This document shows, piece after piece, positions 1-38,072 of a stretch of 64,000 nucleotides of DNA; within the stretch, counting starts at the first letter, position 1; every line of letters begins with the position of its first letter. The notes beneath the pieces are model-generated. The model was not told where the DNA came from. It saw only the letters and a list, made by a program, of their open reading frames with translations, and ran no database searches. Source of the DNA: Nocardiopsis ansamitocini (GTDB lineage: Bacteria; Actinomycetota; Actinomycetes; Streptosporangiales; Streptosporangiaceae); assembly GCF_030268225.1 (NCBI RefSeq), contig NZ_BSQG01000011.1, positions 19,751 through 83,750 on the forward strand. Reading direction: 5' to 3'. The position numbers and the translations under genes are program-made.

Positions 1-147
1 CATCACGCCCTGGAAGAGCATGGAGACCGCTCGTCCGACGTCGTGGAGAAAGCGGAAGATATCGCGCTGGAGGACGACCTTGACGACCCTGAGGTCGTGG
101 GAGAACCCGTAGTCCGGTGCCTGGACGGCCGTGTCCGACGATGTCAC
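1..147 (-). CDS. hypothetical protein, N-terminal fragment (gene continues past the window start); GTG start overlaps the lanKC stop codon (GTGA)
   Basis: Minus-strand frame MTSSDTAVQAPDYGFSHDLRVVKVVLQRDIFRFLHDVGRAVSMLFQGVM... has very high GC3, unlike the overlapping plus-strand ORF 43..318. The GTG sits directly on the TGA of the upstream synthetase gene. No family recognised. Confidence 0.3.
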   Translation of the reverse strand, partial: MTSSDTAVQAPDYGFSHDLRVVKVVLQRDIFRFLHDVGRAVSMLFQGVM

Positions 148-2716
148 GCGTTGCCTCCCGCAGAACTCTCGCAGCCCCGCGCGGAGAAGAAGGGCAGGAA
201 CGGCGCCCCCTGTCCGCGCGCTGTGGCCAGGGCCAGGAGTATGCCGGCGCCCCCGGTCGCCAGGTCCATCGACAAACGGATACCACGGCCGCCGGGAAAA
301 GCGACGTGGCCGCGGTAGGGCAGGGTGTAGGCGGCCAACTCGCGGGCGCGCTCCTCGACCGCCTCGGGCGCACCGCCCATTCTGGCCAGGGTGACGAGCT
401 GCCCCGCTTTGCCGAAGAACAGATCGGCCCGCACGGTCAATCGGGCCAGCGCCGAACGGCACAGGCCCGGAACGGCTTCGCGCACCCGGGCGTCCTCCCG
501 GTGGGCCAACAGGTCGCCCGCCACCAGGGCGATCCCCATGCCGCCTGCTTCCAGGTACGGCAGGGCTCGGGCCCCCTTGTCCTTGACCAGCAGGGCATCG
601 TCATCCGACGTCACGCAGTGGTCGAGGTCCCGGTGGATCGCACGGACCGCGGCGTCGAGACAGGCGGGGTCGGCGGTCTGCTCATACATACGGACGAAGA
701 AGAGCGCGATTCCCGACCACCCGCGCATGAGGCCGACGGGCAGGGCTGCGGTCCGCCCGCTGCTCGCCCGCTCCGCGCCCTCCGGGGGACCGTTCTCCAC
801 GAAGCCGGCGAGCCGGTCGGCCAGCGCCACGGCCCGCTCCCGATACCGGGCGTCCCCGTGGCTGTCCGCGAAGTGCAACAGGGTGGCACCGACCCCGGAG
901 AGGCCCGAGAAGAGGGACATGCCCCCGCTGGGAGCATCCGCGTGCCGCTCCAGCAGGTCGGCCGCCTCTTCCCCGTATCCGAGGTGGTCGAGGGCGTAGG
1001 CGAGACCGGCCACACCGTCGTAGAACCCCGGGTTGGGCCGGACCAGTCGCCGCCCCGCGTCGATCAGCCACTGTTCGTGGTCGGGGTGGCGGCCGTGGCC
1101 CGCCGTGTCCAGTGCCCAGAGGACGCCGGCCGCGCCGTGCGCGAAACCGAAGCCACCCGAGACGAACTGCTGGATGTCCCCGGGGAAGAGGCGGTCCCGA
1201 CGCTCGGGGGTCGCCGAGGCGAGAACCCCGGCGGCGATCGCCGCCGGCGACGGGGCCGCGGCGGGCGGCCACTGCCCGGAGGCGGCGGCCGTGCCTTCCG
1301 GCACCATCTCGGCTTCGATCTCGTCCGCCCACTCCGGGGGGACGGGGAAGTTGCGGCGCACGATCGCGACGAACTCCGCGGCCTTGGCCGAGTCAAGGAC
1401 CGTGATCGGACTGAACAGCATGAACACCACCAGGCGCAGGGCGGCCATTCCGTAGTCGTCGATGGCGGTCCCGCGCCGCTGCGCGACGTTGAAGCCGGGT
1501 GCGCCGAGCCCCGGCTTCCATTGGGCGTCCGCCGCGTCGAACGACTGCTCGAAGTCGATGAGCGTCACCGTGTCGTCGGCATCGACGAGCACATTGTTGA
1601 CGTGCAGGTCACCGAAGACCAGGCCGCGCTTGTGCACCTCGCCGACGATCTCCTTGAGCCGGTCCATGATCCGCAGTGCCCTGCGGGTGTAGTCGGCGAC
1701 CTCCTCGTCGTCGGGGTCCGCCTTGTTGACCCACGGGTGGAAGGCCGCACACCAGGAGTAGAGCGGGAGCCCCTCCGCGTACTCCTGCACCAGGAAGCGG
1801 TGCCCGCCCAGGGGGAAACTGTCGAGAAGGCCCGGGACGCCCGAGATCCCGTCGAGTCGGGTGAGCGCCTTCTCCTCGCGTTCCTGCCGGGCGACGGCGT
1901 CGTCGCCGTTCCCGTCCAGACCGGCATGCGGACGGGCCTCCTTCAACACGACGGTCATGCCGTCGGTGAGGCGTTCCGCGAGGTAGACGCCTCCCCCGTT
2001 GGAAAAGTGCAGCGCCTTCAGGACACGGTAGGGCTGTTGGGCCTCGCCGTTCTGCCCGGTGCGCAGGTGCGGTTTCAGGAAGTCCGGCATCTCGACCCAG
2101 GCCGGTGGGGAGAAGGCGGGTTGGCGGAGGTCGGGGACGAGGGCGCCGTCCGGGCGCCGGATCGCGGGAACCAGTTCCCCGTCCGCACCGGTGCACCGCA
2201 TCTCGGCGAACCCGCCGTAGCGAACGTAGAGGGGCCCCTGGCCCCACCGGAGGTCGCTGAGGATGTAGGGGCCCGGTTCGCCGCCGATCTTCTCGGAGAG
2301 CCCGACGAGAATCGATTCCAGTTCCTTCTCGTCACGTGGATAGATCGTGACAAGTTTCCCGCTGGATGCCCGGGGCGCATATTTGGCGGAGAAAACGAAC
2401 TGGATTCTCCGGTTCATCAGATACTTGAACGGAATTCGCCGGGCAACGCAGTACTCTCGGACCGCTTCGCAGATCTCTTCGGCGTTGTCCAGGGTTGCGG
2501 AGACGTGAATCTTCCAGCCCTGTTCCGGAAGGTCTGCGCCCTCTGGAAAGAGGTAGCGCCAGACCCCCTGATCACCGCTTACCCACCCACTGGGACAGTC
2601 AAGGCCGGAGATCGAGAACTCTCCGTCGCCGAGAAAAGCCGGGCCGCCCGTCCACCGGCGCGGGTCTTCATAGAAAAGCGGGTCCGCTTGCGTGTAGACC
2701 TCTACCCGATCGAGCA
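144..2716 (-). CDS. lanKC: class III lanthipeptide synthetase (LanKC-type: N-terminal pSer/pThr lyase, central Ser/Thr kinase, C-terminal LanC-like cyclase lacking Zn ligands)
   Basis: Kinase motifs seen: HKRGLVFGDLHVNNVLVD and LIDFEQSF. The LanC-like C-terminus has GFAHGAAGVLWAL, but the WCxG position reads RGWSGIA (no Cys) and the CHG position reads LATGGAG (no Cys/His). Loss of zinc ligands is characteristic of class III rather than class IV. Start placed at GTG 2716 (GGAGA 6 nt upstream). Upstream of that the frame has low GC3 and is not coding, so the ORF-track start at 3023 is rejected. Confidence 0.85.
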
Positions 2717-2740
2717 CGAGTGTTCTCCATTCGACAAACC

Positions 2741-2767
2741 GAAAACCCCGGCCCCGGAGCGGGGACC
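2741..2767 (-). promoter_or_regulatory. GC hairpin followed by T-tract on the minus strand about 25 nt upstream of the lanKC start (terminator/attenuator-like)
   Basis: Minus-strand reading cggtccccgctccggggccgggg then tttt. It lies between the SHOCT-domain gene and lanKC. Confidence 0.3.
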
Positions 2768-3124
2768 GATCTCTTCGGGTCGGGCACGTGAACAGTGGCC
2801 TCTTTTCAAAGAGGCGGAACGGACCGACGGGTCCTCTTGCGCATAATGCCCGCCGCAGATCCCGCGCATTATCGCCGGGCATCCGTGCGGACACCCTATT
2901 CACGTGTCCGGTGCCGCTCCAGCTCCCGGCAGCAGCCATGGCTCGGACCGGAGGTCGACCGACAGGGGGCAACCGGCCACGACGTCCCCGGAACGGTACC
3001 GGCCGGACGCTTCGGCCGGGCACACGGCGAGGAACGCTTCGCCGTGGAGCATTGCGTCGGGGACGACGACGCCGTTGCAGGGTGGCCCCGAAGGTCTGCT
3101 CCTGCGGGGCGTTCGGCGGACGGC

Positions 3125-6511: not shown

Positions 6512-7626
6512 GTTTGCACTCCCGTGTTCGAGATCGGTTGCATCTGCACCCGCCGGAGTTTGCCCGTCTCGGAGCGGTCGATCCGGTCGACGGGAACCAC
6601 CTTGCGGGGACGGCATTCCAGTTCCGCCAGGGCGGCGGCCAGGTCGAGATCGGCTCCGGTACGGCCGCCGCCGGGAACGATCAGCAGGTCGAAGTGCTCG
6701 CCGATGAGGGGGTCGGTCACCGGCGTGCAGGCCAGGTCCGCACAGGACACCGAGGACCGCAGCCGTTCCTCGATGAGTTCGAGGTCGATCCTGCGTCCAT
6801 TGACGTTGACGAGCCGGCCGCGCCGACCGGCGAAGCCGAATCTGCGTGCGTCGATGATCCGCACCCGGTCGTCCATCTCCCAGGAATCCGGTGCGCGGCC
6901 GTCCGGAAAGCGAGCCAGCCGTGGACTGCGTACAGTTAGCGGAACTTCACCCTCGGTTGTACTCTCGGGGCGGGGCAGCGCGAACTCGACGTCCGGGCAC
7001 AGCTCCCAGGGCGGGTTCCCGCCGCTCCACCTGCGGGTGGCGATGGCACCGGTCTCCGTGGAGCCGAACAGTTCCAGCAGCGAGGCGGTTTCGGGGAACT
7101 TCGCAAGCAGGTCGGCGGCGGTGGCGGGGAGCACGGACGTGCTGTGGACAACGCTGACCCGTTCGAGAGAACGAACCCAGGAGGCTCGCTGAAGCAGAAT
7201 CCGAAAGGTCCAGGGGATGGCCATGACGGCCCAGCGCCGGTGCGGTTGCGGCGGCATGGCGGCGAACTGCGGGCGGTACCAAACAGGAAGCCCGAGCTTC
7301 GCGGGGACGAGGAGGCTGACGAGTGCCCCGTAGAGATGCCGGGGCGGAGCGAACGACAGGACCGCCTCGGGTCGGTCGGGTCCGATCATGGCCGCCAGGA
7401 GCGACGCTTCCGCCCACAGTTGCTCGCGACTGCGCCGCCAGCGTCGGCGTTCTCCGGTGGTCCCCGACGTGAAGAAGTCCAGTACCGGCGGGAACCGTTT
7501 CATGACGAAGTCCTCGACCGGTTCGTCCAGTTCGTCCCAGCGCACCGTCCAGGGGCGTTCGGTGAACTCGGGCGCCTGGAAGTCGCCGGCCAACAAGTCC
7601 GCCGGCGAGAGTCGGTCGTACGTCAC
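6508..7626 (-). CDS. short adenylate-forming enzyme (AMP-binding/ANL superfamily, PaaK-like size)
   Basis: FFTSGTTGERRRW (A3 core), GSTETG (A5-like), ETGKL (A10 Lys). Only about 372 aa. Start ambiguous: GTG 7626 (GGAGG 8 nt upstream, overlaps the uORF stop) or GTG 7662. Confidence 0.75.
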   Translation of the reverse strand: MTYDRLSPADLLAGDFQAPEFTERPWTVRWDELDEPVEDFVMKRFPPVLDFFTSGTTGERRRWRRSREQLWAEASLLAAMIGPDRPEAVLSFAPPRHLYGALVSLLVPAKLGLPVWYRPQFAAMPPQPHRRWAVMAIPWTFRILLQRASWVRSLERVSVVHSTSVLPATAADLLAKFPETASLLELFGSTETGAIATRRWSGGNPPWELCPDVEFALPRPESTTEGEVPLTVRSPRLARFPDGRAPDSWEMDDRVRIIDARRFGFAGRRGRLVNVNGRRIDLELIEERLRSSVSCADLACTPVTDPLIGEHFDLLIVPGGGRTGADLDLAAALAELECRPRKVVPVDRIDRSETGKLRRVQMQPISNTGVQT

Positions 7627-7703
7627 GCGACCGACCTCCGGTGCGCACGGCCCTTCGCGCACAATCGCGGAACCACCGTCTCCCCTCGGTCGAGGCAGGT
7701 CAT
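7623..7703 (-). CDS. 26-aa upstream ORF MTCLDRGETVVPRLCAKGRAHRRSVA, translationally coupled to the adenylating-enzyme gene
   Basis: ATG preceded by AAGGAGAG at 5 nt spacing. Its TGA overlaps GTG 7626 of the downstream gene (GTGA). No homology recognised. Confidence 0.3.
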   Translation of the reverse strand: MTCLDRGETVVPRLCAKGRAHRRSVA

Positions 7704-7877
7704 GGACTCTCCTTTGTCATATCCGTCGTGCAGTGGTGCCGAGGCGAAAAGCGCAGGCACGGGAGGGGCCACACCCTTCACCGGCCCGCCCGGCGGGAGG
7801 ACGCCGCACCCGCCGAGGTGTCCCGCCAGCGGGACGGTCCCGGATGCGGCCCGGAAGCGATCCCCTGCCGTTCGGCC

Positions 7878-8870
7878 TCAAGCCGAGGTGGAACCCACCC
7901 GCTTCTTCAGCGGTTCCCACCAGCTCCGGTTGTCCACGTACCAGCGCACGGTGTCGGCCAACCCCTGCCGGAAGGGCACCTGGTCCCGGTAGCCCAACTC
8001 GGTGCGGATCCTCGTGTGGTCGAGGGAGTAGCGGTGGTCGTGTCCCTTGCGGTCCTCGACGAAGCGCACCATCGACCAGTCGTGCCCCAGCTCCTTTAGG
8101 ACCAGTGCCGTCACCTGCTCGTTGGTCATCTCCACGGCGCTGCCGATGTTGTAGATCCGCCCCGGGTCACCGTGTTGCGCGACCAGGGCGATACCGGCGC
8201 AGTGGTCGTCGACGTGCACCCACTCGCGCACGTTGCTGCCGTCCCCGTAAAGGGGGACCGTCTCGCCGTCCAGGAGGTTCGTGACGAAGAGCGGGATCAG
8301 CTTCTCGGGGAACTGGTAGGGCCCGTAGTTGTTGCAGCACCGGGTGATGCACACCGCGAGACCGTGCGTCTTGTAGAAGGCACGGGCGATGAGATCGGCC
8401 GCGCCCTTCGTTGCCGCGTAGGGGGAGTTGGGCTCCAGCAGGCCCTGCTCGTCCCAGGACTCCGACGTGATCGTCCCGTAGACCTCGTCGGTCGACACGA
8501 GGACGAATTTGTCGACCTTCGCCCTCAACGCGCTGTCGAGAAGGGCGAACGTCCCGTTCACATTGCTGCGCAGGAACTCCGAACCGTCAGCGATGGAGCG
8601 GTCGACATGCGTCTCGGCCGCGAAGTGGACGACGAGCGAGACACCGGCCATCACCTCGTCGAGCAGAGCGGTGTCACAGATGTCCCCGGAGACGAATCTG
8701 AGCCGGGGGTCCTCCATTACGCGTTCCAGGCTCCCCAATGTTCCGGCGTAGGTCAGCTTGTCCAGGACCACGACCTCGGAGGCGTCCACCCCCGGATACG
8801 CGCCCGCGAGAACGCGTCGGACGAAATTCGATCCGACAAACCCAGCGCCGCCAGTGACCAGCATTCTCAT
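7878..8870 (-). CDS. rmlB: dTDP-glucose 4,6-dehydratase
   Basis: MRMLVTGGAGFVGSNFV Rossmann N-terminus, YAATKGAAD (YxxxK), LVSTDEVYG. Typical RmlB length of 330 aa. Confidence 0.9.
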   Translation of the reverse strand: MRMLVTGGAGFVGSNFVRRVLAGAYPGVDASEVVVLDKLTYAGTLGSLERVMEDPRLRFVSGDICDTALLDEVMAGVSLVVHFAAETHVDRSIADGSEFLRSNVNGTFALLDSALRAKVDKFVLVSTDEVYGTITSESWDEQGLLEPNSPYAATKGAADLIARAFYKTHGLAVCITRCCNNYGPYQFPEKLIPLFVTNLLDGETVPLYGDGSNVREWVHVDDHCAGIALVAQHGDPGRIYNIGSAVEMTNEQVTALVLKELGHDWSMVRFVEDRKGHDHRYSLDHTRIRTELGYRDQVPFRQGLADTVRWYVDNRSWWEPLKKRVGSTSA

Positions 8871-8882
8871 GTGCTCTCACCT

Positions 8883-9764
8883 CTACCGTGTGCCATTCGA
8901 GCGCCGAGCCTTTTCCATCACGTATCGACCGTACGGCGAGTCCTTCATCTCTTCTCCCAACCTGTGACACGCCTCCGCGTCGATGAATCCCATACGCAAC
9001 GCGATCTCTTCGAGGCAGGCGATGCGCTCGCCTTGTCCCTTCAGCACCGAGTGGACATAGCAGGCGGACTCGAAGAGGGACTCCTCCGTTCCCGCGTCGA
9101 ACCACGCGACACTGTCTTCCAGCGTCACGAAACGCGCCCTTTCCTGGGCAAGGTAAGCCCGGTTGACATCGGTGATCTCAAGTTCGCCGCGCGCCGACGG
9201 ACGAACCTCCTTGGCCACCTCGACCGCATCGGCGCCGTAGAAATAGAGCCCCGTCACCGCGTAGTCGGAATCGGGGCGTTCCGGTTTTTCCTCGATCGAG
9301 ATCAACCTCCCGGACCGGTCGAACCCCCCGACCCCGTAGCGGCACGGATCAAAGACCTTGTGTCCGAAGAGGACGCATCCGTCCACCGTGCGTGCGGCCT
9401 CCTGGACGGCTTCCTCGAATCCGGGGCCGTGGAACAGGTTGTCGCCCAGTACCAGCGCACTGGGTCGGCCGTCGATATGACGTTCGCCGATGAGCAGAGC
9501 CTCCGCGATTCCTCGCGGCTCTTTTTGCTCCCGGTAACCGATATCGAGACCGAGCCGCTTTCCGTCTCCGAACACCCGTTGCAGAGGGGAAATCGATTCG
9601 GGGGCGGAGATCACCAGAATTTCACGGATTCCAGCGAGCATGAGAACCGCGATCGGATAGTAGATCATCGGCTTGTCGTAGATGGGAAACAACTGCTTAG
9701 ACGCCGCACTCGTACTCGGCCGGAGACGGCTCCCGTTTCCTCCCGCCAGAACAATACCCTTCAC
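8883..9764 (-). CDS. rmlA: glucose-1-phosphate thymidylyltransferase
   Basis: VKGIVLAGGNGSRLRP at the GTG start, with AGGAG 5 nt upstream. Also EKPERPDSDYAVTGLYFY. The longer N-terminal extension in the ORF track is rejected. Confidence 0.9.
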   Translation of the reverse strand: MKGIVLAGGNGSRLRPSTSAASKQLFPIYDKPMIYYPIAVLMLAGIREILVISAPESISPLQRVFGDGKRLGLDIGYREQKEPRGIAEALLIGERHIDGRPSALVLGDNLFHGPGFEEAVQEAARTVDGCVLFGHKVFDPCRYGVGGFDRSGRLISIEEKPERPDSDYAVTGLYFYGADAVEVAKEVRPSARGELEITDVNRAYLAQERARFVTLEDSVAWFDAGTEESLFESACYVHSVLKGQGERIACLEEIALRMGFIDAEACHRLGEEMKDSPYGRYVMEKARRSNGTR

Positions 9765-10037
9765 AGAAACTCCTGGTCGGACAGAGCGGTGGGTTTCACC
9801 GAACCGTACACGGGGTCTCTCGGGTTTTGTCCAGACTCGGCACCGTTCCTGCACGATGGTATGTTCACCGAGCCAGGGAGCTATACGCCCCCACCCCTTC
9901 CCGACCCACGCGAAAAACCTGGACCGGCAGCCCGAACTCCCCAAGTTAAAGGCGGCAACAACGCCGACGGCACTCAATGGCCGACCTTTTCATTGCGGAT
10001 GACTTTCTCCGAACGCGTACCAGGAAAAGGAAATACC

Positions 10038-11318
10038 GTGCGCATCCTCATAGCGACATACGCAGACAGGTCCTACTTCTTCAGCATGGTGCCACTGGCA
10101 TGGGCGCTGCGGGCCGCGGGTCACGAGGTGCGAGTGGCCAGCCAGCCGGAGCTGACCGACGCGGCCGCAAGCACCGGCCTGACCGTACTCCCGGTCGGCG
10201 AGGACCACATGTCCAGGAAACTGCTGCACTCGCCGGCGACCCAGCAGTACCAGGACTACCAGGAATCCGCCTTCAACCTGGCCGAGGACCGGCCGGAGGA
10301 GCTGACGTGGGACCGCCTCAAGAAGGCGCAACTCCGGTTCGTCGTCTGGTGGTGGAAGGTGATCAACGAACCGATGCTGAAAGAACTCGTGGCCTTCTGT
10401 CGGGAGTGGCGGCCGGATCTGGTGATCTGGGAGCCGATGACCTTCGCCGGGGCAGTGGCCGCCGAGGCGTGCGGTGCCGCCCACGCCCGCTTCCTGTGGA
10501 GCTACGACCTGGTCGGCCAGAATCGCCGGAACTACCTGGAGGCGATGGCGGAGCAGCCCGCGCACGAGCATGCCGACCCGCTGCGCGAATGGCTCACCTC
10601 CCGCGCCGAGCGCTACGACGTCCCCTTCTCCGAGGACCTGATCAGAGGGCAGTTCTCGATCGGCCCCATTCCCGCCTCCCTCAGGGCCGGGGAGCCCGTG
10701 GTCGAGGAGAAGGTGGGCGTGCGCCATGTCCCCTACGAGGGGGCAACCGTCCTGCCCGGATGGCTGCGCACCCCACTCGAGCAGCGACGCGTGCTCGTGG
10801 ACTGGCGGGCGCTGCGGGCCGGTGACCCCGAACGCAGCGAGGCGGTCCTGCGGGAGGTGCTGGCCGGCGCGATCGGCCTGGACGCGGAAGTGCTGCTGGT
10901 CCTTCCGCCGGCGGACCGGGAGACACTCCCCCCCTTCCCCGACCGTGTGCGCGTCATCGAAGAGGGCATCTCCCACATCGTGCTTCCCACGTGCTCCGCG
11001 GTGGTCCACCCCGGAGGGTTCGACACGTACTGCACGTCCTTGCTGCACGGGGTGCCGCAGGTGATCGTCCCCGAGCCGGACCTGTTCGACGCGACGCCAC
11101 TGGCGAGTGCCCTGGCCGACGCCTCCGCGGGCAGCGTGCTCCCCTGGGCGGGGTGCACCGCCGGGGGCGTCCGGGAGCGGCTGGACGAGGTGCTCGGTTC
11201 CGCGGAGATAGCCGCGGGCGTCCGCCGACTCCAGCAGGAGGTACTGGCCATGCCCACACCGGACCTTCTCGTGGCGGAACTGGAACGCCTCACCGTCAAG
11301 CACCGGAAAGAGGACTGA
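10038..11318 (+). CDS. GT1-family glycosyltransferase (antibiotic/macrolide-type)
   Basis: VRILIATYADRSYFFSMVPLAWALRAAGHEVRVAS N-terminal domain and HPGGFDTYCTSLLHGVPQVIVP C-terminal nucleotide-sugar domain. GTG at 10038 with AAAGGA RBS. The remaining upstream part of ORF 8172..11318 is antisense shadow of rmlA/rmlB. Confidence 0.85.
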   Translation: MRILIATYADRSYFFSMVPLAWALRAAGHEVRVASQPELTDAAASTGLTVLPVGEDHMSRKLLHSPATQQYQDYQESAFNLAEDRPEELTWDRLKKAQLRFVVWWWKVINEPMLKELVAFCREWRPDLVIWEPMTFAGAVAAEACGAAHARFLWSYDLVGQNRRNYLEAMAEQPAHEHADPLREWLTSRAERYDVPFSEDLIRGQFSIGPIPASLRAGEPVVEEKVGVRHVPYEGATVLPGWLRTPLEQRRVLVDWRALRAGDPERSEAVLREVLAGAIGLDAEVLLVLPPADRETLPPFPDRVRVIEEGISHIVLPTCSAVVHPGGFDTYCTSLLHGVPQVIVPEPDLFDATPLASALADASAGSVLPWAGCTAGGVRERLDEVLGSAEIAAGVRRLQQEVLAMPTPDLLVAELERLTVKHRKED

Positions 11319-11351
11319 GCCGACCGCGGGCACCCGCTCCGGGGCGAGACT

Positions 11352-12599
11352 TCAGCCGGTGAGGTCGTGGAGGAGGGGGACGAGGTCGGCGGGGGCGGGC
11401 ATGTCCTGCATTTCCCGGCGCAGGCGGTCGGCCGACCGGGCGAACCCCGGCTCCCCGAGCAGCCGTCGTACCCGCTCCCCCACCGTCTCCCCCGTGGCGT
11501 CGGCGGAGTCCAGCGCGAACCCCGCGCCTGCCCGCTCCACCTCCCGGGCCAACAGCGGAGCGTCGAACAACCGGTCCCTTGGGGCGATGACCTGGGGAAC
11601 CCCGTGGGTGAGCGAGGTGAACACGGTCCCCGGCCCGCCCTGGTCGACCATGGCGTGGCAGGTGGGGGTGAGTGCGTGGAGGGGGGCGTAGTCGACGAGG
11701 CGGGTGTTGGGGGGGATGGGTCCGAGGGTGTGGTGGTGGGCGGTGGGGATGGTGGCGATGATTTCGGCGTCGAGGTCGGCGAGTCCGTTGAGGATGTCGG
11801 TGACGGAGACGGTGTAGCCGCCGAAGCGTTCGGAGGCGCTGGTGCCCAGGGTGAGGCAGATGCGGGGTCGGTGGGGTGGGGTGCGCAGCCAGTGGGGGAC
11901 GACGGCGCGCCCGTTGTAGGGGACGTAGCGCATCGGCAGGTACCTGGCGTCGGACAACGGATCGATCCGCAGCGAGGGAGGAACCTGGTCGATGGTGGCC
12001 TGGCCGTGGACGAGTTCTTCGTCATAATCGAGGCCGTAGCGTGCGGCGAGGGCGGTGAGCCAGGCGGCTAGGGGGTCTTCTTGCTGGTCGGGGGGCTGCT
12101 CGCCCATCCGCCGCAGGTACAACCCCCGCATCCGGGAGAACAGGTCGAGGCTCCAGAGGAAGCGGACGTGGGCGGCCCCGCAGGCCCTGGCCGCGATCGC
12201 CCCCGCGAACGTCGTGGGCTCCCAGATCACCAGGTCCGGACGCCACTGGCGGCAGAACGCCACCAGGTCGCCCAGCATCGGCTCGTTGACCATGCGCCAC
12301 CACCAGGTCACCATCTGGCGATAGCCATCCCTCATGTAATCCCAGGTGAGAACCTCGTCGCGGTCTTCACCCATGTCGAAGACCGCGGTCCGGCCGCCGG
12401 CCGCGCGTTTGACCATCCTCGGAAAAGAGTGGTTGCGGCCCACGGGCACGAAGGGCAGTCCGGCACCGGTGACCACACCTTCGAGTTCGGGCTGACTGGC
12501 CACCCGCACCTCGTGCCCGGCCGCCCGCAACGCCCACGCCACGGGAACCATCCCCAGAAAATGCGTCCGCTCGGCCTGGGCCGCGATCACCACGCGCAC
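11352..12599 (-). CDS. GT1-family glycosyltransferase, paralog of 10038..11318, convergent
   Basis: VRVVIAAQAERTHFLGMVPVAWALRAAGHEVRVAS and HAMVDQGGPGTVFTSLTHGVPQVIAP. GTG 12599 with GAGGTGG RBS. Confidence 0.85.
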   Translation of the reverse strand: MRVVIAAQAERTHFLGMVPVAWALRAAGHEVRVASQPELEGVVTGAGLPFVPVGRNHSFPRMVKRAAGGRTAVFDMGEDRDEVLTWDYMRDGYRQMVTWWWRMVNEPMLGDLVAFCRQWRPDLVIWEPTTFAGAIAARACGAAHVRFLWSLDLFSRMRGLYLRRMGEQPPDQQEDPLAAWLTALAARYGLDYDEELVHGQATIDQVPPSLRIDPLSDARYLPMRYVPYNGRAVVPHWLRTPPHRPRICLTLGTSASERFGGYTVSVTDILNGLADLDAEIIATIPTAHHHTLGPIPPNTRLVDYAPLHALTPTCHAMVDQGGPGTVFTSLTHGVPQVIAPRDRLFDAPLLAREVERAGAGFALDSADATGETVGERVRRLLGEPGFARSADRLRREMQDMPAPADLVPLLHDLTG

Positions 12600-12660
12600 G
12601 AATCCCCACCTCTCCCGCACCTGCGCACCGCTTCCCCCGGCGGCTGCGCCCGGCACACGA

Positions 12661-13659
12661 TCATCGCGCGACTGCGCGGGCTTCCCGGCTGTGTTCCGCC
12701 TGCGCCTCGGCCGCACGGATCGTGCTGCCGGTGTACTCCAGGAAGACGTCGTCGAGGGACGGCGGCGTCACCCTGATGGAGCGGACCGGGAACTTCAGGT
12801 CGGCGAACAGGCGCGGAACGAATTCCTCGCCCTCGGCGACCGTGAAGACGACGTTCTCCCCCTCGATCTGCGGAGCGATCCCGAACCGGTCCAGCAGCAC
12901 CGCACCGAGGGCGTCGGCCTCGGCCGAGACCATCTCCACCCGGTCCTTGCCGACGCTCTCCTTGAGCGCCCGGGGGCTGTCCAGCACCGCGATGGAGCCT
13001 TCGTCGATGATGGCGATCCGCTGACAGTTCTCGGCTTCCTCCAGGTAATGCGTCGTCATGAAAACGGTCACGCCGTCGCGCTCGTTGATCTCGCGGATGC
13101 CTTCCCAGATGGCCTGTCTGGTCTGCGGGTCGAGACCGATCGTCGGCTCGTCGAGGAAGAGCACGCGGGGCGAGTGGAGCAGGCCGCGGGCGATCTCCAG
13201 GCGTCGGCGCAGGCCACCGGAATAGGTCCCCACGATCCGGTCCTTGTGGCTGCCCAGGCCGACGGTCTCGATCGCGCGGTCGATCCGCTCCTCCACCAGG
13301 TGCTTGGGAACGGCGTAGATCTCGGCGTGGAACCGGAGGTTCTGCCGTCCGGTCAGGTAGCGGTCGAGGGTCTGCTCCTGGAAGACCAGCCCGATGGTGC
13401 GGCGGACCTCCTGGCGTTGGTGCACGACGTCGTAACCCCCGACGGAAGCGGATCCGCCCGTCGGAGTGAGGAGGGTGCACAGCATCTTGATGACCGTGGA
13501 CTTGCCCGCACCGTTGGGGCCGAGAAAACCGAAGATCTCGCCCGGCTCGACCTCGAAGTCGACGCCCTTGACCGCCTCGACCTCGTCGTAGCGCTTGTGG
13601 AGGCCGCGCGCGGACACGGCAGGGGCGGCGTTTCCTCCGGGCACACCCGAGTGGGTCAC
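12661..13659 (-). CDS. ABC transporter ATP-binding protein (DrrA-like); no cognate permease in the window
   Basis: Walker A GPNGAGKST, signature YSGGLRRRLEIA, Walker B VLFLDEPT. GTG start with GAGGAGG RBS. Confidence 0.85.
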   Translation of the reverse strand: MTHSGVPGGNAAPAVSARGLHKRYDEVEAVKGVDFEVEPGEIFGFLGPNGAGKSTVIKMLCTLLTPTGGSASVGGYDVVHQRQEVRRTIGLVFQEQTLDRYLTGRQNLRFHAEIYAVPKHLVEERIDRAIETVGLGSHKDRIVGTYSGGLRRRLEIARGLLHSPRVLFLDEPTIGLDPQTRQAIWEGIREINERDGVTVFMTTHYLEEAENCQRIAIIDEGSIAVLDSPRALKESVGKDRVEMVSAEADALGAVLLDRFGIAPQIEGENVVFTVAEGEEFVPRLFADLKFPVRSIRVTPPSLDDVFLEYTGSTIRAAEAQAEHSREARAVAR

Positions 13660-13734
13660 CGGGCCAACCTCCTCAAGAGTCGGGCAACAGCTCCGGCCTC
13701 CGGCCGTTTATCGACGTGACCGGCCGTTGCGTGG

Positions 13735-14301
13735 TCAGGACGCGGGCGGACCCGCGGCGAGCGTCCGGACGAACTCAACACCTGCCGTCTCCCACTGCTC
13801 CCGGTAGACGGCGAAGACGTTCGCCGTCCTCAACTGGTCGCCGTCCTTCACGTACTCGGGGAACACGACCTCTTTGACGGCGTCGATCGGGGTGCCGTCC
13901 AGCGCGGCGATCGAGTCGTCGAGCGTCCAGAAGTAGATCTTCCTGATGTTCCACATCGAGAACGCGTAGTTGGCGGTCAGCGCGGTCGCGGCGGTCGCGG
14001 CTCCCGGCCCGCCGCGAGACGGGTCGAGCGCCACGCTGCACTTCACGTAACCGCTGTGCGGGCTGAGTTCGTGCAACGAGGTGTAGCCGACGATCCTCCC
14101 CGACTCCGGGTGCACGATCTCGAACTGGGCGCAGACCTGCTGGTGCGGACCGTTGGGCCAGAGCGACATGGACGTGAAGGCGTCGCGGCTGGGGAGCTTC
14201 TCCAACCCCAGACCGGTCAGTTCCTCGAAAACGGCGCTACCGGTACGGGTCTGAGCGGCGGTGAGCCGGATCCCGAGCGCTTCGGTGTGCGGAATTATCA
14301 C
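13735..14301 (-). CDS. GNAT-family N-acetyltransferase (RimL/acetyltransf_3-like)
   Basis: SRGGPGAATAATALTANYAF matches the acetyl-CoA-binding motif A (R-G-x-G-x-A). GTG start at 14301. The ORF-track 5-prime extension to 14505 overlaps the precursor gene and hairpin and is rejected. Confidence 0.5.
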   Translation of the reverse strand: MIIPHTEALGIRLTAAQTRTGSAVFEELTGLGLEKLPSRDAFTSMSLWPNGPHQQVCAQFEIVHPESGRIVGYTSLHELSPHSGYVKCSVALDPSRGGPGAATAATALTANYAFSMWNIRKIYFWTLDDSIAALDGTPIDAVKEVVFPEYVKDGDQLRTANVFAVYREQWETAGVEFVRTLAAGPPAS

Positions 14302-14348
14302 GTCTGGAAACCCTCGACTACGAAATATTGACTGGCACCAAAGGAGTC

Positions 14349-14378
14349 GGCGTGCGCCGCGCAACCGCGGCGCACGCC
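14349..14378. terminator. perfect 13-bp inverted repeat (GGCGTGCGCCGCG-caac-CGCGGCGCACGCC), 10 nt downstream of the precursor gene stop
   Basis: Read directly. Sits between the precursor peptide and the GNAT gene, like the attenuator hairpins common after RiPP structural genes. Confidence 0.5.
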
Positions 14379-14387
14379 GGTGACCGA

Positions 14388-14489
14388 TCAACCGCAGTTG
14401 AAGTAACTGGCCCCACTGTTGGCCAGAAAAACCTGGTCGGACTCGATTTCCAACTCCTGAAGGGAGAGGATGTCGGAAAGCGTCATCAT
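14388..14489 (-). CDS. lanA1: class III lanthipeptide precursor peptide candidate (33 aa): MMTLSDILSLQELEIESDQVFLANSGASYFNCG
   Basis: Not in the ORF track (below its size cutoff). AAAGAGGTGG Shine-Dalgarno immediately upstream. The leader carries an ILELQ-like motif (DILSLQELEIE). The core carries exactly one Ser-x-x-Ser-x-x-x-Cys motif (SGASYFNC), the labionin/lanthionine-forming pattern of class III substrates. Confidence 0.6.
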   Translation of the reverse strand: MMTLSDILSLQELEIESDQVFLANSGASYFNCG

Positions 14490-15286
14490 GCCACCTCTTT
14501 CTCAATCACTAGGACGCCGCGAAAATCGCCCGCACCCCAGGGTCCGGGCCAATAATCGAAGGCGAAAGGATAAGTTAGGAGCACACCACGCTATCGGAAG
14601 CAGACCCCTTGAGAAACCGAAGAAAGCAGAACTGCCCTTTCAGCTGCCATCAAAAGTAGGCCAATGCGTCCGAACGCGCAAGAATAGGCACCCGAAACGA
14701 AATTGGCCCTCCTCCCGACGGGTCCCGCCGGCGGGACACCCGGTCCGCCCCCGCAGCCGGTGGACCACACGTTGCCCCTGATGTCCCCACGCCTCCCCAC
14801 CAGCGGCTCCGACGCCTGGAGGCCCTTCGTCCCCGCCCGCGCACTACCGCCGGTGACCTGCCCCGAACGGCTCACCCCCGGCACCATCCGACCTTCCCGC
14901 ACACCAGTGGGCCGGCGCCGGTGTCCCCCTATTCTTGGCCACGGCACAGTCGCGTCCGGCACGATCGACGATCGTCGTGCGCACCGCCCATCCGTCCGTC
15001 TCACGTCCCCGGCATGTCCTGCGGAGGCACGCCGGAAAAGAAAGACCGGGCACCGGGGCGGGAGACACCGATCCGCCCCGAGCGCCGGGACGGCGCGGGG
15101 CCGGGAGAGCGACGGGAGACCGCTTCGCGCCGTGGCTCTCGCGGCCAGGAAGCGGGACGACGGCCCCGATGACGCCTGGCCCCGGCGGGCACCTGGTGCC
15201 GGCCTTTGACACTCTTCGGCAGGGGAGACAGCGCACAGACGGTCCTCTTCCGGGCTGACGGACCGATTCGGCAGGGAAGGATATGG

Positions 15287-16609
15287 ATGGTGATGAGCGA
15301 TCAGGCCGCGCGGATCCTCGACGAGGTCCGCGCCTACCACCGGGAGACCCAGCAGGAACAGGAGTTCATTCCGGGTGTCACCGAGATCTGGTCATCCGGC
15401 GCGGTTCTCGACGAAGAGGACCGGGTGTCTCTGGTCGAGGCCGCCCTGGAGATGCGGATCGCAGCGGGCAGGAACTCGCGCAAATTCGAGTCCATCTTCG
15501 CCCGCAGGCTGAACCGGCGCAAAGCCCACCTGACCAACTCCGGTTCGTCGGCGAACCTGCTCTCCCTGTCGGCGCTGACGTCGCACCTGTTGGAAGAACG
15601 CCGGCTCCGGCCCGGCGACGAAGTGATCACGGTCGCCGCGGGGTTCCCCACCACCGTCAACCCGATCCTGCAGAACGGGCTGATCCCGGTATTCGTGGAC
15701 GTCGAGCTGCGGACCTACAACACCACCGCCGATCGGGTGGCTCAAGCGATCGGTCCGCGCACCCGGGCGATCATGATCGCGCACGCGTTGGGCAACCCGT
15801 TCGAGGCCACCGAAATCGCCCAGTTGGCCGAGGACAACGACCTGTTCCTGATCGAGGACAACTGCGACGCCGTGGGCTCCACCTACGACGGGCGACTGAC
15901 GGGTTCCTTCGGCGACCTGTCGACGGTGAGCTTCTATCCGGCCCATCACCTCACCATGGGCGAAGGCGGCTGCGTGCTCACCTCGAACCTGGTTCTGGCC
16001 CGGATCGTGGAGTCGATGCGCGACTGGGGGCGGGACTGCTGGTGCGAACCCGGGGAGAGCAACACCTGCCACAAGCGGTTCGCCTACCAGCTGGGCACGC
16101 TGCCGGCCGGGTACGACCACAAGTACACCTTCTCCCACGTGGGCTACAACCTGAAGGGAACCGATCTTCAGGCGGCTCTCGGTCTGAGCCAACTCACCAA
16201 ACTCGACGGGTTCTCAGCGGCCCGGCGTCGCAACTGGCGCCGGCTGCGCGAGGGTCTCGACGGCCTGCCGTGGCTGCTGCTTCCCGAGGCGACACCGCGC
16301 GGCGATCCGAGCTGGTTCGGTTTCGTTATGACTGTTTCGCCAGCGGCACCGTTCAGCAGAGCGGAACTGGTCGAGTTCCTGGAGAACCGAAAGATCGGTA
16401 CCCGCCTGCTGTTTGCCGGGAATCTGACACGGCACCCCGCGTACATCGACCGCCCCCACCGCGTGGCCGACGACCTGACCAACAGTGACCTGATCACGGA
16501 GCAGACGTTCTGGACCGGTGTCTATCCGGGACTCACCGACGAGATGCTCGACTACGTCATCTCCTCCATCACCGAGTTCGTGAAGACACGCGGGGGCTCT
16601 GGCCATTGA
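15287..16609 (+). CDS. NDP-4-keto-6-deoxyhexose 3-dehydrase (E1/ColD/SpnQ-type, PMP- and [2Fe-2S]-dependent member of the DegT/DnrJ/EryC1 aminotransferase fold)
   Basis: [14 protein letters not shown] has His where aminotransferases have the PLP lysine. Exact C-X57-C-X1-C-X7-C spacing (EDNC ... [13 protein letters not shown]), the E1 iron-sulfur signature. ATG 15287 with GGAAGGA RBS. Confidence 0.85.
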
Positions 16610-16814
16610 ACACGACCGGCACGGCCTGGAAAATGATTCCCCGAGCGGTTAACAGTCGACTTCCCCAGCGGGATAAATACGGCCGGAGAACAACCCGACT
16701 TCCATTTTCGCCGCGTGGCGGGTAATTTCTGTTCACGCTGTCCGGTTAACTCGGGACAGCGACTCGCACACTGGACTATCAGATTTCGAGTAGACCTGAG
16801 GAGGTGATTATTTC

Positions 16815-16934
16815 ATGGCACTCTCGGACGTCCTGCTTCTCCAGGGAATGGAGATCGAGACGGCGGGCAACGATGTCCCCCTTCTCGGAAGTGGTTTGAG
16901 CATTACCGGCTGCACCGTACTGCAGGCCGCATAG
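16815..16934 (+). CDS. lanA2: class III lanthipeptide precursor peptide candidate (39 aa): MALSDVLLLQGMEIETAGNDVPLLGSGLSITGCTVLQAA
   Basis: Not in the ORF track. GAGGAGGTG RBS 10 nt upstream. Leader LSDVLLLQGMEIET parallels the other precursor (LSDILSLQELEIES). Core has a single S-x-x-S-x-x-x-C motif (SGLSITGC). TAG stop. Confidence 0.65.
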   Translation: MALSDVLLLQGMEIETAGNDVPLLGSGLSITGCTVLQAA

Positions 16935-17053
16935 TCCGCGATTATGCGGTCACATTGGGTTCGGACCCGTGATGATCCGTGGCACTGCTTTTCGCGGTTC
17001 GAATAGCAGGGCCGCGGGGAATGAGCGGCGAAGCGGACCCACAGGTGGGGAGC

Positions 17054-17081
17054 GGGGCCTCGCGGACGACCGCGAGGCCCC
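17054..17081. terminator. perfect 12-bp stem hairpin (GGGGCCTCGCGG-acga-CCGCGAGGCCCC) between convergent lanA2 and the hydrolase gene
   Basis: Read directly from the sequence. Confidence 0.55.
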
Positions 17082-17118
17082 GTTGCGTATGCGGGCCCCT
17101 GCCGCGTACGGCTGTGCC

Positions 17119-17979
17119 CTAGAGAAAGGCGCGCAGTGCGGCGTGGAACTCCTCCGGGCGGTCCCGGGGGAGCAGGTGGCCGGCATCCGGGACGCGCAGA
17201 AGATCCGCGCCGGGAATGAGCCGGGCCGTCTCCTCGACGGCGCTCAGCGGAACGACGGAGTCCCGGTCACCGCGCACCACCAGCGTCGGACAGGCGATGT
17301 GCCTGAGCAGTGGGCGCAGGTCGGTGCGCATTCGGCGCCACCCGTACGAGGAGATCTGCCAGTCGTCCATGACCAGTTCTCCGGCCTCGCGTTTGCTCCG
17401 CATCTCCTGCTCGGCAAGTGCGACGATCTCGGCGAAGTCGGGATGGTCCGCGCCTTCGACCAGGGCGGCTCGAAGCGAGACGCGGATCAGGGCAGGACTG
17501 TGGGCGAACAGCGCCGTGGTGAGCCGGAGCAGGCCGGGCGTGCGCAGATAGAGGTACGTCGAGCCCTGTGCCACCCGTCTGCCTTCCATCCCGCCGGGGG
17601 CGACGAGGACCAGGCGTTCGACGCGGTCGGGGTTGCGAGCCGCGAACCCCGCGGCGATACCGCCGCCGAGGGAGAGCCCCACCAGCCTGGCGCTCGCCAG
17701 GCCGCAGTGGTCCATCAGCTCGGCCACCGCCTCTTCCAGACCGGCCTGGCCGGTGGGGCCGTGCCAGGGACGGCTCCCGCCGTGGCGCGGCCAGTCCAGG
17801 GCAAACACCCGGTATCCGTCCTGGAGGGCCGGGATGGCAGCCCCCCAGACGAGCGGGGCGGTGTCGAGCATGGCGCCGTGCAGCAGGATCACAGCGGGGC
17901 CGGTGTTCCCGGCCCGGTAGTAGCGGAGCGGCCCGTGGGCGGTCGTGATGGTGTGTGCGGTCGCGCTTGTCAAAGGCAT
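17119..17979 (-). CDS. alpha/beta-fold hydrolase
   Basis: GLSLGG nucleophile elbow and HG oxyanion motif near the N-terminus (ILLHGAM). Confidence 0.8.
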   Translation of the reverse strand: MPLTSATAHTITTAHGPLRYYRAGNTGPAVILLHGAMLDTAPLVWGAAIPALQDGYRVFALDWPRHGGSRPWHGPTGQAGLEEAVAELMDHCGLASARLVGLSLGGGIAAGFAARNPDRVERLVLVAPGGMEGRRVAQGSTYLYLRTPGLLRLTTALFAHSPALIRVSLRAALVEGADHPDFAEIVALAEQEMRSKREAGELVMDDWQISSYGWRRMRTDLRPLLRHIACPTLVVRGDRDSVVPLSAVEETARLIPGADLLRVPDAGHLLPRDRPEEFHAALRAFL

Positions 17980-17997: not shown

Positions 17998-18684
17998 CTA
18001 CCCGGTGGGTTCGGGGGACTGGGTGCCGTCCCCGGAGAGAGGGGTGGCGATGAAATCGGTGAAAGCGCGCCGGCCCTCGGTCGGATCGGCGTCGGCGTCG
18101 CCCTCGAAGCCTCCGGCCAGCAGTGCGGCAACGGCGTCCAGCGTCGATTCCAACGGAGGCGCCGCCTCGCTGCCGACGGTGGATTCGATGCTGATCAGAC
18201 CGGTGGAGATGATGGCGAGGACGTGCGCGACGGACTGCGCGTCGAGGTCGGTGCGGATCAGTCCGGCTTCCTGCATGCGAACGACGAACGCGACTGCCCA
18301 TCGCTGCCGGGGCGCATAGCGCTCGGGGCCGTACCCGCGCACGAGGTCACCGAGGGTCTGGCTGTCAGCGGTGTAGAGCGCCCGCATGAGGGGGTCCGCA
18401 GCGAGGGCTTCCAGTGCATGCCGGTAGATCGCCGAAAGCCTGCCGCCCTGGGGGTCGGCCGTGACCGCCTCGGTGGTCGTCCGGGCCAACCGGTGGGTCT
18501 GGCGGAGCAGCAATGCCTCAAGGACCGCTTCCTTGCTGGCGAACTCCTGGTAGACGGCGCCCTTGGCGATCCCGGCGGTGCGCGCGATGTCGCTGACGCT
18601 GGTCTTGTCGTAGCCGTAGCGGGCGATCAGTCCCGCTGCCGCATCCAGGATCCGCCCGGCCCGTTCGATCCCTGCCCGCACCAT
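17998..18684 (-). CDS. TetR-family transcriptional regulator
   Basis: N-terminal HTH: YDKTSVSDIARTAGIAKGAVYQEFASKEAV. Confidence 0.85.
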   Translation of the reverse strand: MVRAGIERAGRILDAAAGLIARYGYDKTSVSDIARTAGIAKGAVYQEFASKEAVLEALLLRQTHRLARTTTEAVTADPQGGRLSAIYRHALEALAADPLMRALYTADSQTLGDLVRGYGPERYAPRQRWAVAFVVRMQEAGLIRTDLDAQSVAHVLAIISTGLISIESTVGSEAAPPLESTLDAVAALLAGGFEGDADADPTEGRRAFTDFIATPLSGDGTQSPEPTG

Positions 18685-18718: not shown

Positions 18719-18786
18719 CAGACTAGCGCACTGTTCGTCGGACCGTCCACGCCTCGACCGGGAACGAGGCGTGGACACTCCCGTGA

Positions 18787-19680: not shown

Positions 19681-19888
19681 CGCTGAACAATAGCGATATT
19701 AAGCGTCTGACCAGCGTTTTCATGCAATTAATCAACCCAAGCAGCTTGTTCATTGCGCCCATTCGCCCGCATCGCCCCGGAGAAGCGCACCGGTGCCGCG
19801 GGACGGGCGCGACCACCGGCGTCCCCGGTGAATCGCCCGCCCCGCGGCGAACGCGGAAGCGGCCGTAGCCGCACGGGATCGTCCCTGT

Positions 19889-22015
19889 TCAGGCGGGCAC
19901 GGATGCCACGTCGCGATCCCAGACCCGGTGGGCGGCGACCAGTCGGGCGAATGCCTCGTGCAGTTCGCGGCCGTCCCCGCCCCGGAAAGTGGCCACCCCC
20001 TGGTCGACGACGACACCGTCGCCGTCGGCTGCCGTGCGCAGCCGGGGCAGTGGGAGCCGGCCCAACAGGTCGACCCCCTCGTCGAGGGCTGCCACCGGTT
20101 TGGCGTGCTTGAACGCCTCGGTCACGAAGAACAGGGCGCCGCCGTCGCTGCCCAGCGTGGCGACACTGTCGGCCCCGCCCGCCACGAGCACCGCGTCGTA
20201 GAGGACCGAAGCGACGGTACTCATGGCACGGTCCACGGCCAGGGACGAGCCATTGGACGCTCTGACCTGCCCGTCGACAGGTGCGAGCAGTTCCACCACG
20301 GCCCCGCGCCCGGTCATGGCGTCGCGGAAGGCCGCGACCGCGTCGCCGCCCACCCCGTCGGCGACCAACACGGCGATCTGGCGGCCGAACACGGTGTCGG
20401 CCGCTTGGCCGGCCTGGCTGAGCGCGGGTGAGCGGCGACCATGGTTGGTCACCTGGGCCGTGGCCGGCGGGGCGACACCGATTCCCGACGCCACCTGAAC
20501 GGCGAGTCCGTGGTCGACGCGGTTGAGGTTCTCCACGACACGCTCGCGGACCCGGAGGTCCTCGCATTTGCCGAGTTCGAAGCGGAACGCCGCCACCACG
20601 TGCGCGCGCTCCCAGTCGGCCAGGCTGTTGTAGAAGAGGGTCGCCTGCGAGTAGTGGTCCTGGAAGCTGTCGCTGCGCTTGCGGATCTTCACCCCGTCGA
20701 CCCGCTCCTGGTAATGGCGGTAGGCGTTCGCGTCGGCAAGCGCCGGGCATCCGCCGCCCAACGAATTGGGGTGGTAGCTGGTGTGCCCCCGGTGCACCAG
20801 CTGCTGCCCGGATCCGTCCCGCTGGTTGTTGCTGACCTCGTTCACCGGACGGTTGACCGGGATCTGTTGGAAGTTGGGCCCGCCGAGCCTGGTGAGCTGG
20901 GTGTCGAGATAGGAGAAGTTGCGGGCCTGGAGCAACGGGTCGTTGGTGAAGTCGATCCCCGGGACCACATTGGCGGTGTGGAAGGCGATCTGCTCGGTCT
21001 CCGCGAAATAATTGTCGGGGTTGCGGTTGAGCACCATCCTGCCCACCGGAGTGACCGCGACCTCCTCCTCGGGCAGGAGTTTGGTGGCGTCGAGCAGGTC
21101 GAAGTCGAACTTGTGCTCGTCGCTCTCGGGGACGAGTTGGACGCCGAGCTCGTATTCGGGATAGCGGCCCTGCGCGATCGCATCCCACAGGTCGCGCCGG
21201 TTGAAGTCGGGGTCCTTGCCCTGGATCTTCTGTGCCTCGTCCCAGACCAGCGAGTGCGTGCCCAGCACCGGCCTCCAGTGGAACTTCACGAAGGTGCCTT
21301 CTCCCCGGTCGTTCACCAGGCGGAAGGTGTGCACCCCGAACCCCTGCATCGTGCGGTAGCTGCGGGGAATCGAGCGGTCCGACATCATCCACATCATCAT
21401 GTGCATGGTCTCGGGTTGCAGGCCCACGAAGTCCCACAGGGTGTCGTGCGCGGACTGGGCCTGCGGGATCTCGTTGTGCGGCTCCGGCTTGACCGCGTGC
21501 ACGAAGTCGGGGAATTTGATGCCGTCCTGGATGAAGAACACCGGGATGTTGTTGCCGACCAGGTCGTAATTGCCCTCTTGGGTGTAGAACTTGGTCGCGA
21601 ATCCGCGCACGTCACGTACGGTGTCGGCCGAGCCACGGGATCCCGCGACCGTGGAGAACCGGACGAACACCGGCGTCCGCACGGCCGGATCACTGAGGAA
21701 GTGCGCCCTGGTGTGGCGGGAGAGGGACGCGTAGGGCTGGAAGTAGCCGTAGGCGCCGGCCCCGCGCGCGTGCACGACCCGCTCCGGAATCCGCTCGTGG
21801 TCGAAACGGGTCATTTTCTCCCGGAAGTGGAAGTCCTCCAGGAGCGTGGGCCCCCGCTCCCCCACGCCGAGCGAGTTGTCGGTGTCGTCGATCAACACCC
21901 CGTTGTCGGTGGTGAGGTCACCGCGCGAGTCGGTGCGTACCCCGTCGAGCTGGCGGTCCTTGGCGTCGGCGTCGTGGTCACGGAATTCGGTCATGGAGCG
22001 GCCTCGTTTCGACAT
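19889..22015 (-). CDS. katE: large-subunit catalase HPII
   Basis: [33 protein letters not shown] and the distal-His region. 708 aa with a C-terminal flavodoxin-like extension, typical of KatE. Confidence 0.9.
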
Positions 22016-38012: not shown

Positions 38013-38027
38013 CTGCCAGTCGGACCG

Positions 38028-38062: not shown

Positions 38063-38072
38063 CCGGTGCGAG

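Follow-up and report, generated by a model that had tools for sequence, protein, structure and literature searches.

The two palindromes that follow the lanthipeptide precursor genes lanA1 and lanA2 of Nocardiopsis ansamitocini are best explained as elements acting in RNA, namely as transcript 3'-end hairpins of the kind usual for this high-G+C actinomycete. In the 64,000-nucleotide stretch of DNA analysed here (the window; G+C content 68.7%), hairpin 1 probably serves as a leaky terminator and 3'-end stabiliser of the lanA1 transcript and hairpin 2 as a bidirectional terminator at the end of two convergent units. The hairpins are a further instance of a well-known arrangement.

Hairpin 1 (14348-14379, minus strand) consists of a perfect 14-bp stem, in which 13 of the 14 pairs are G-C, and the 4-nt loop CAAC (GUUG on the lanA1 transcript). 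Hairpin 2 (17053-17082, plus strand), located between the convergent lanA2 and hydrolase genes, has a perfect 13-bp stem (12 of 13 pairs G-C) and the loop ACGA, and RNAfold lengthens it to 15 pairs (17051-17084) by adding an A-U and a G.U pair. The sequences named in the original prediction lie exactly where it had placed them, but each stem is one C-G pair longer than described; the distance of hairpin 1 from the lanA1 stop codon, given there as 10 nt, is 9 nt for the 13-bp version and 8 nt, counted from the last base of the stop codon, for the 14-bp stem. The stems with their 4-nt loops have folding energies of -33.1 kcal/mol (hairpin 1) and -36.9 kcal/mol (hairpin 2), with z scores of -4.4 and -4.9, respectively, when folded in an 81-nt context. 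With -38.3 kcal/mol, hairpin 2 occupies the second rank among approximately 64,000 sliding 46-nt folds covering both strands, for which the mean is -14.4 kcal/mol and the 0.1 percentile -32.8 kcal/mol; hairpin 1, at -35.7 kcal/mol, comes about sixth. A statistical excess of such structures was observed directly: the window contains six perfect hairpins with a stem of 12 bp or more and a 3-8-nt loop, and none arose in 40 dinucleotide-preserving shuffles, where the longest stem was 11 bp.

The genes preceding the hairpins encode short class III-type precursors of 33 aa (lanA1, 14388..14489, minus strand; MMTLSDILSLQELEIESDQVFLANSGASYFNCG) and 39 aa (lanA2, 16815..16934, plus strand; MALSDVLLLQGMEIETAGNDVPLLGSGLSITGCTVLQAA). 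Both peptides carry an ILELQ-like leader and an S-x2-S-x3-C core, ILELQ being the recognition motif of the class III lanthipeptide leader (PMC8341899). Curated class III peptide models matched lanA1 and lanA2 below their cut-offs only, and look-ups of the exact peptide sequences in public assemblies returned no match. An SD..LQ leader and an SG.S...C core are invariant among five homologous peptides, which come from three lineages; across these five, nucleotide changes in lanA cluster at third codon positions and many codons vary only synonymously. As judged from comparative sequence data, the small ORFs are genuine precursor genes, which is supported far better by the homologues, the codon-level conservation and the linkage to the synthetase gene LanKC than by the hairpins.

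lanA1 is the first of a string of genes that are all on the minus strand, separated mostly by gaps of 0-20 nt, and end with the class III lanthionine synthetase gene LanKC (144..3023; NF038151, E 7e-289). The first gene behind hairpin 1 is a GNAT-like gene (13735..14301; 188 aa, GTG start, ribosome-binding site GAGGG), whose product matches an annotated N. ansamitocini protein with 100% identity. It is followed by genes for an ABC ATPase (12661-13659) and an EryCIII-like glycosyltransferase (11352-12716), an unknown gene (9990-11333), and genes for a glucose-1-phosphate thymidylyltransferase (8883-9977), a dTDP-glucose 4,6-dehydratase (7878-8870), an AMP-binding enzyme (6508-7662), an aromatic amino-acid lyase (5000-6616), a methyltransferase (4166-4999) and a DUF4429/SHOCT protein (3125-4045), all on the minus strand. 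Upstream of lanA2, a DegT/DnrJ/EryC1-type aminotransferase gene is found on the plus strand (15206..16609), and an alpha/beta-hydrolase gene (17119..17979, minus strand) converges on lanA2, with a TetR-family gene (17998-18684) beyond it. The cluster from 144 to 16934 resembles a pathway for a sugar-decorated class III lanthipeptide with an unusual layout: 11-14 kb separate LanKC from the two precursor genes, and this interval holds dTDP-sugar (RmlA/RmlB-like), DegT, EryCIII-like, GNAT-like, lyase, AMP-binding and methyltransferase genes. The GNAT-like family scores barely at or under Pfam thresholds and always adjoins these lanA genes.

The geometry of an attenuator is present at hairpin 1: the stop codon of the precursor gene is followed by the hairpin and, 46 nt after its end, by the GTG start codon of the co-directional GNAT-like gene. 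The annotated 188-aa protein and the alignment of its N-terminus with those of homologues establish this start codon, hence hairpin 1 is intergenic. A longer GNAT ORF (13735-14505), which would place hairpin 1 inside the coding sequence, was rejected on the grounds that the N. ansamitocini annotation has the 188-aa form and that homologues start at the equivalent residue. As no plus-strand genes end near hairpin 1, it can serve minus-strand transcripts only, and the 8 nt 3' of the stem on the lanA1 strand (ACUCCUUU) contain 4 U, as compared to 1 U on the opposite strand (GUGACCGA). Within the string from lanA1 to LanKC, hairpin 1 is by far the strongest hairpin 3' of a gene (-35.7 kcal/mol), the runner-up (-31.6 kcal/mol) being located 3' of the methyltransferase gene. 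A scan for sigma-70 consensus promoters called no sigma-70-like promoter between the lanA1 stop codon and the GNAT-like gene.

Following this, we propose that transcription of lanA1 starts upstream, in the AT-richer region 14490-14700, and that much of it stops at hairpin 1, or that the RNA is trimmed back to it, 8 nt past the stop codon, which would result in a short and stable lanA1 mRNA with a predicted length of roughly 225 nt. A minority of the polymerases would continue past hairpin 1 into the tailoring and export genes, first the GNAT-like gene, then those for the ABC ATPase, the glycosyltransferase and the sugar enzymes, and would eventually reach LanKC, so that the precursor message would exceed the enzyme message. 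If so, removal or retention of hairpin 1 should alter the expression of the downstream tailoring genes, and the hairpins indicate where to cut when this glycosylated class III lanthipeptide cluster is refactored for heterologous expression.

The best-known RiPP attenuator is the inverted repeat that follows nisA in the nisin operon. For RiPPs in general, operons are described in which the precursor gene comes first and is followed by an imperfect terminator or 'attenuator', with reference to Severinov 2007, Foulston and Bibb 2010 and O'Rourke 2017 (PMC7113386). Hairpin 1 is like these systems in its location in a short gap after a precursor that is the first gene of a co-directional string, with a promoter-like region upstream; it differs in that its tail is weakly U-rich and that its role is predicted from the sequence. 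The original prediction had regarded both hairpins as the classic RiPP arrangement. That description suits hairpin 1, the geometry of which corresponds to what is documented for RiPPs (PMC7113386) and recurs in relatives, but not hairpin 2, which has nothing co-directional behind it. A full-text literature search for lanthipeptide-specific terminator papers gave nothing useful.

Both hairpins have the G+C-rich stem and the short loop of a canonical intrinsic terminator; hairpin 1 resembles a canonical Rho-independent terminator also in its position right after a stop codon, and its counterpart in Glycomyces fuscus is fully canonical. By contrast, a canonical U-tract of 7-9 nt 3' of the stem is absent at hairpins 1 and 2, the tails ACUCCUUU and UUGCGUAU being interrupted (4 U of 8), and neither hairpin was called in a consensus terminator scan that required at least five T in 8 nt. 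Purified mycobacterial RNA polymerase did not terminate in vitro without a U-tract; imperfect tracts were tolerated, and NusG helped (PMC3993855). Since there is no contiguous U-tract and no scan call, and since the mycobacterial polymerase needs a U-tract, it is uncertain whether transcription truly terminates in an intrinsic manner at ACUCCUUU or UUGCGUAU. In Streptomyces clavuligerus, a Term-seq analysis found the lowest read-through for the 'highly structured, U-rich' class of 3' ends, for which the fold energy has to be lower than -23 kcal/mol and the 8 nt past the stem have to include three U or more (PMC8269248). Both hairpins, read in the lanA direction, therefore fall into the class with the lowest read-through, as they have 4 U in their 8-nt tails and fold with energies well under this limit. 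They share with the S. clavuligerus sites the G+C-rich stems, loops of 4-8 nt and positions past stop codons, at non-terminal sites within operons and, for bidirectional 3' ends, between convergent genes (PMC8269248); those sites were mapped experimentally in Streptomyces, whereas the Nocardiopsis hairpins are predictions.

The main alternative, which we regard as rather unlikely, is that the hairpins do not stop RNA polymerase but act as barriers to 3'-to-5' exonucleases. They would then define and stabilise 3' ends of transcripts that had been terminated by Rho or cut by an endonuclease further downstream, and the excess of lanA message would be due to differential mRNA stability instead of attenuation. 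The missing real U-tract and the requirement for one by an actinobacterial RNA polymerase in vitro (PMC3993855) speak for such a role, as does the view of the Term-seq authors, who ascribed many highly structured, U-poor 3' ends to protected transcripts terminated by Rho (PMC8269248); moreover, several hairpins are stacked in the lanA2 3' region (z -5.65). However, the presence of 4 U of 8 in the lanA direction groups both hairpins with the efficient class (PMC8269248), the G. fuscus counterpart carries a canonical UUUUCUCU tail, and the 46 nt between hairpin 1 and the next start codon offer little untranslated RNA for the loading of Rho.

The surroundings of hairpin 2 are different from those of hairpin 1. 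Both hairpins had been described as lying immediately downstream of their precursor genes, which is true of lanA1 (8 nt) but not of lanA2, as 118 nt separate the lanA2 stop (16934) from hairpin 2, which is only 36 nt away from the stop of the convergent hydrolase gene (17119). Past hairpin 2, the plus strand holds no co-directional gene, the next gene being convergent; therefore, hairpin 2 cannot set a precursor-to-enzyme ratio by attenuation, and the idea that it is a stoichiometry device was not borne out. The hydrolase gene already accounts for this hairpin. Its location between two convergent stop codons and its perfect Watson-Crick palindrome, usable in both directions, are those of a bidirectional terminator; an A-tract 5' and a U-tract 3' of the stem that would give a U-tail on both strands are absent, the tail being UUGCGUAU with 4 U of 8 in the lanA2 direction (plus strand) and CUCCCCAC with 1 U in the hydrolase direction (minus strand). 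The simplest reading is that hairpin 2 is a terminator shared by convergent units, which marks the end of each unit and is not a stoichiometry device. It would end the lanA2 transcript, with a predicted length of roughly 355 nt, and, from the other side, the hydrolase/TetR transcript, and it may also stabilise the lanA2 mRNA; it would attenuate nothing, because no gene follows on the lanA2 strand.

Hairpin 2 belongs to a stack of structures in the lanA2 3' region (16925-17125). This begins with a weaker hairpin (16925..16951, plus strand; 12 pairs including two G.U, -18.1 kcal/mol, z -2.8) that overlaps the last lanA2 codons and the stop codon, continues with a branched element and hairpin 2, and ends with a 9-bp hairpin (17086..17110; loop GCCCCUG) in tandem with hairpin 2; read on the minus strand, this 9-bp hairpin begins 8 nt past the stop of the hydrolase gene. 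Furthermore, a terminator-like site with a 5-bp stem and the T-rich tail CACTGCTTTT is present at 16967-16982, 33 nt past the lanA2 stop. Hairpin 2 might thus belong to the hydrolase/TetR transcript only, with lanA2 ending at the weaker and nearer structures (16925-16951 or 16967-16982), and the shorter distance of hairpin 2 to the hydrolase stop, the CACTGCTTTT-tailed site and the hairpin over the lanA2 stop codon are in line with this. We consider it improbable, given that the tail is U-richer toward lanA2 (4 vs 1 of 8), that the hydrolase gene has a hairpin of its own at 17086-17110, that a perfect Watson-Crick palindrome is equally usable on both strands, and that the structures nearer to lanA2 are weak (-18 kcal/mol and a 5-bp stem).

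Related loci were sought with the GNAT-like protein and with a peptide alignment. Only four GNAT-like homologues were found among 5.8 billion clustered proteins, and the peptide-alignment scans yielded one genome locus and two metagenome loci. The loci related to that of N. ansamitocini are those in G. fuscus (L005), in the near-identical metagenome contigs L003 and L006 and in the more distant metagenome contig L007. No lanA gene was present upstream of the GNAT-like homologues L001 and L002, and a further homologue (L004, 33% identity) is separated by a 40-nt gap from a divergent gene. The order of lanA and the GNAT-like gene is kept in G. fuscus and in L007. The latter has two tandem lanA genes (lanA-a and lanA-b) and the gene order lanA, GNAT-like, ABC ATPase and DUF4429; the same genes occur in the window. 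In G. fuscus, LanKC (NF038151, E 2e-285) is located on the divergent arm, therefore the hairpin there cannot tune the ratio of precursor to synthetase, and in this respect the family differs from the RiPP attenuators in that the hairpin is no general precursor-to-LanKC ratio device. Two GNAT-like paralogues flank the lanA promoter region in G. fuscus (L005, 3238-3843 and 4177-4740) and in L007 (including 2983-3543). As far as the contigs reach, the lanA/GNAT-like/ABC/DUF4429 core with LanKC is compact in G. fuscus and L007 and lacks sugar genes.

A hairpin at the junction between lanA and the GNAT-like gene was directly observed in all three lineages, 8-11 nt past the lanA stop, with unrelated sequences and in a weaker form in L007. 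In G. fuscus, as well as in L003 and L006, GCGCUGUGGAGAA-AUCCA-UUCUUCACAGCGC follows 11 nt past the stop codon (13 pairs, -20.5 kcal/mol, z -4.1); the canonical UUUUCUCU tail comes next, and the GNAT-like gene starts 35 nt on. In L007, lanA-b has an imperfect 15-pair hairpin 9 nt past its stop (-25.5 kcal/mol, z -1.6), then the GNAT homologue, and the 3' arm of a second hairpin covers the GNAT ribosome-binding site; the stability of these lanA-b hairpins was not above that of shuffled sequence (z -1.3 to -1.8). Approximately 94 nt past the stop of lanA-a, GCCGCCCC-N8-GGGGGCGG with UUUCUCC forms a hairpin whose perfect G+C core stem is 8 bp long, with 12 pairs in total when folded. The positional comparison thus covers three independent lineages, none of them close, in which the relatives keep the position of the hairpin and not its sequence. 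As the position recurs while the sequence differs, an RNA structural element is expected rather than a protein-binding site. The recurrence of a hairpin 8-11 nt past the lanA stop in three lineages with unrelated sequences might also reflect selection for a coupling of its folding to the terminating ribosome, so that it would be a translation-sensitive attenuator, with read-through into the tailoring and export genes set by lanA translation, and not a fixed leaky terminator; this idea is speculative and we give it a small chance. If true, the translation-sensitive hairpin and the conserved upstream palindrome GTCCCGCCGGCGGGAC described below would constitute a dedicated regulatory module of the lanA/GNAT-like/LanKC cluster family.

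The reading of the two palindromes as transcript 3'-end hairpins is in line with the distribution of comparable structures in the window, as the other very strong hairpins are mostly located just 3' of the stops of ordinary genes. These include hairpins 14 nt past a 1665-aa gene (38023-38068, -44.1 kcal/mol), past a minus-strand ORF with its stop codon at 40883-40885 (40827-40872, -36.7 kcal/mol), 3' of a catalase gene (19799-19844, -36.1 kcal/mol) and 10 nt past an amidinotransferase-like gene (18737-18782, -33.7 kcal/mol). The last of these lies 60 nt before the co-directional TetR gene, which is the same layout as at hairpin 1. A hairpin of -33 kcal/mol or below within approximately 150 nt of the stop was found for 7 of 37 well-supported genes vs 2.1% of random spans of equal length, and a strong hairpin raises the odds of a transcript end at that place roughly by about an order of magnitude. 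What it argues for is the end of some transcript, and nothing specific to RiPP precursors. The original prediction took the hairpins as independent support for the small ORFs; given comparable hairpins after ordinary genes, such as the 1665-aa, catalase and amidinotransferase-like genes, that support is weak. More generally, in high-G+C actinomycetes a strong hairpin past a small ORF is weak evidence of a RiPP gene. A 19-pair hairpin with some G.U pairs (20767-20812, -36.0 kcal/mol) lies within the catalase coding sequence and thus away from gene ends; by stability, it is in the top five of the local structures in the window.

It is very improbable that the palindromes function as DNA elements, be it as sites for a dimeric regulator or as copies of mobile or REP-like repeats. 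In favour of this, both are perfect inverted repeats whose arms are 4 bp apart, and the gene of a TetR-family protein is located nearby (17998-18684). However, hairpins 1 and 2 have no common sequence, and they lie at gene 3' ends and not in promoter regions. Their arms did not recur elsewhere in the window above chance, so that the hairpins are unique structures and not repeat copies; on the same ground the idea of a repeated element or shared operator was rejected. The preservation of position and not of sequence in relatives is the opposite of what characterises an operator, and it is another palindrome, upstream of the lanA genes, that is conserved in sequence. Finally, a guanidine-II (mini-ykkC) riboswitch containing hairpin 2, a candidate prompted by its ACGA loop and a weak Rfam match (RF01068, 17058-17099, 21.9 bits, E 0.33), can practically be dismissed as a chance resemblance, as the score does not reach the 32-bit gathering threshold, the loop of the neighbouring hairpin is GCCCCUG and not ACGR, leaving a single ACGR loop so that the defining features fail, and the plus strand has no downstream gene to regulate.

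Upstream of lanA1, a non-coding region of 700 nt is present, the lanA1-proximal part of which drops to 51-55% G+C. The sigma-70 consensus promoter scan gave no match near lanA1 or lanA2, and all promoter-like motifs described here were identified solely by aligning the related loci. TTGTCG, followed after 17 nt by TAnnTT, is found upstream of lanA in G. fuscus (L005, approximately 3925-3955) and in L007 (approximately 2380-2410 and 2680-2710). In the window, the promoter-like element TAACTT (14572-14577) lies approximately 85 nt upstream of the lanA1 ATG. Further upstream, 233 nt from the ATG, the 16-nt palindrome GTCCCGCCGGCGGGAC (14722-14737) was identified as a candidate operator. It is exactly conserved in all related lanA loci (L005, 3874-3889; L003, 6-21; L006, 1269-1284; L007, 2344-2359), and in every locus found, that of N. 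ansamitocini included, it is located 100-230 nt upstream of a lanA gene, with flanks that are not conserved. Judging from this conservation, GTCCCGCCGGCGGGAC is likely the operator of a cluster regulator; for the lanA1 transcript, it indicates on which side the promoter lies. A copy with one mismatch is present at 7820-7835, in the intergenic space preceding the cluster's AMP-binding gene.

For lanA2, the -10-like element TAATTT (16723-16728) directly follows a small terminator-like hairpin with a T-rich tail (16707-16722) that is located 3' of the DegT aminotransferase gene. In L007, the -35-like element of lanA-b sits in the loop of the lanA-a terminator hairpin. The region upstream of lanA2 in the window also contains a palindrome with the centre GTTAAC (GCTGTCCGGTTAACTCGGGACAGC, 16735-16765), located between the -10-like element and the ribosome-binding site; it may serve as a second operator or form a hairpin in the 5' UTR.
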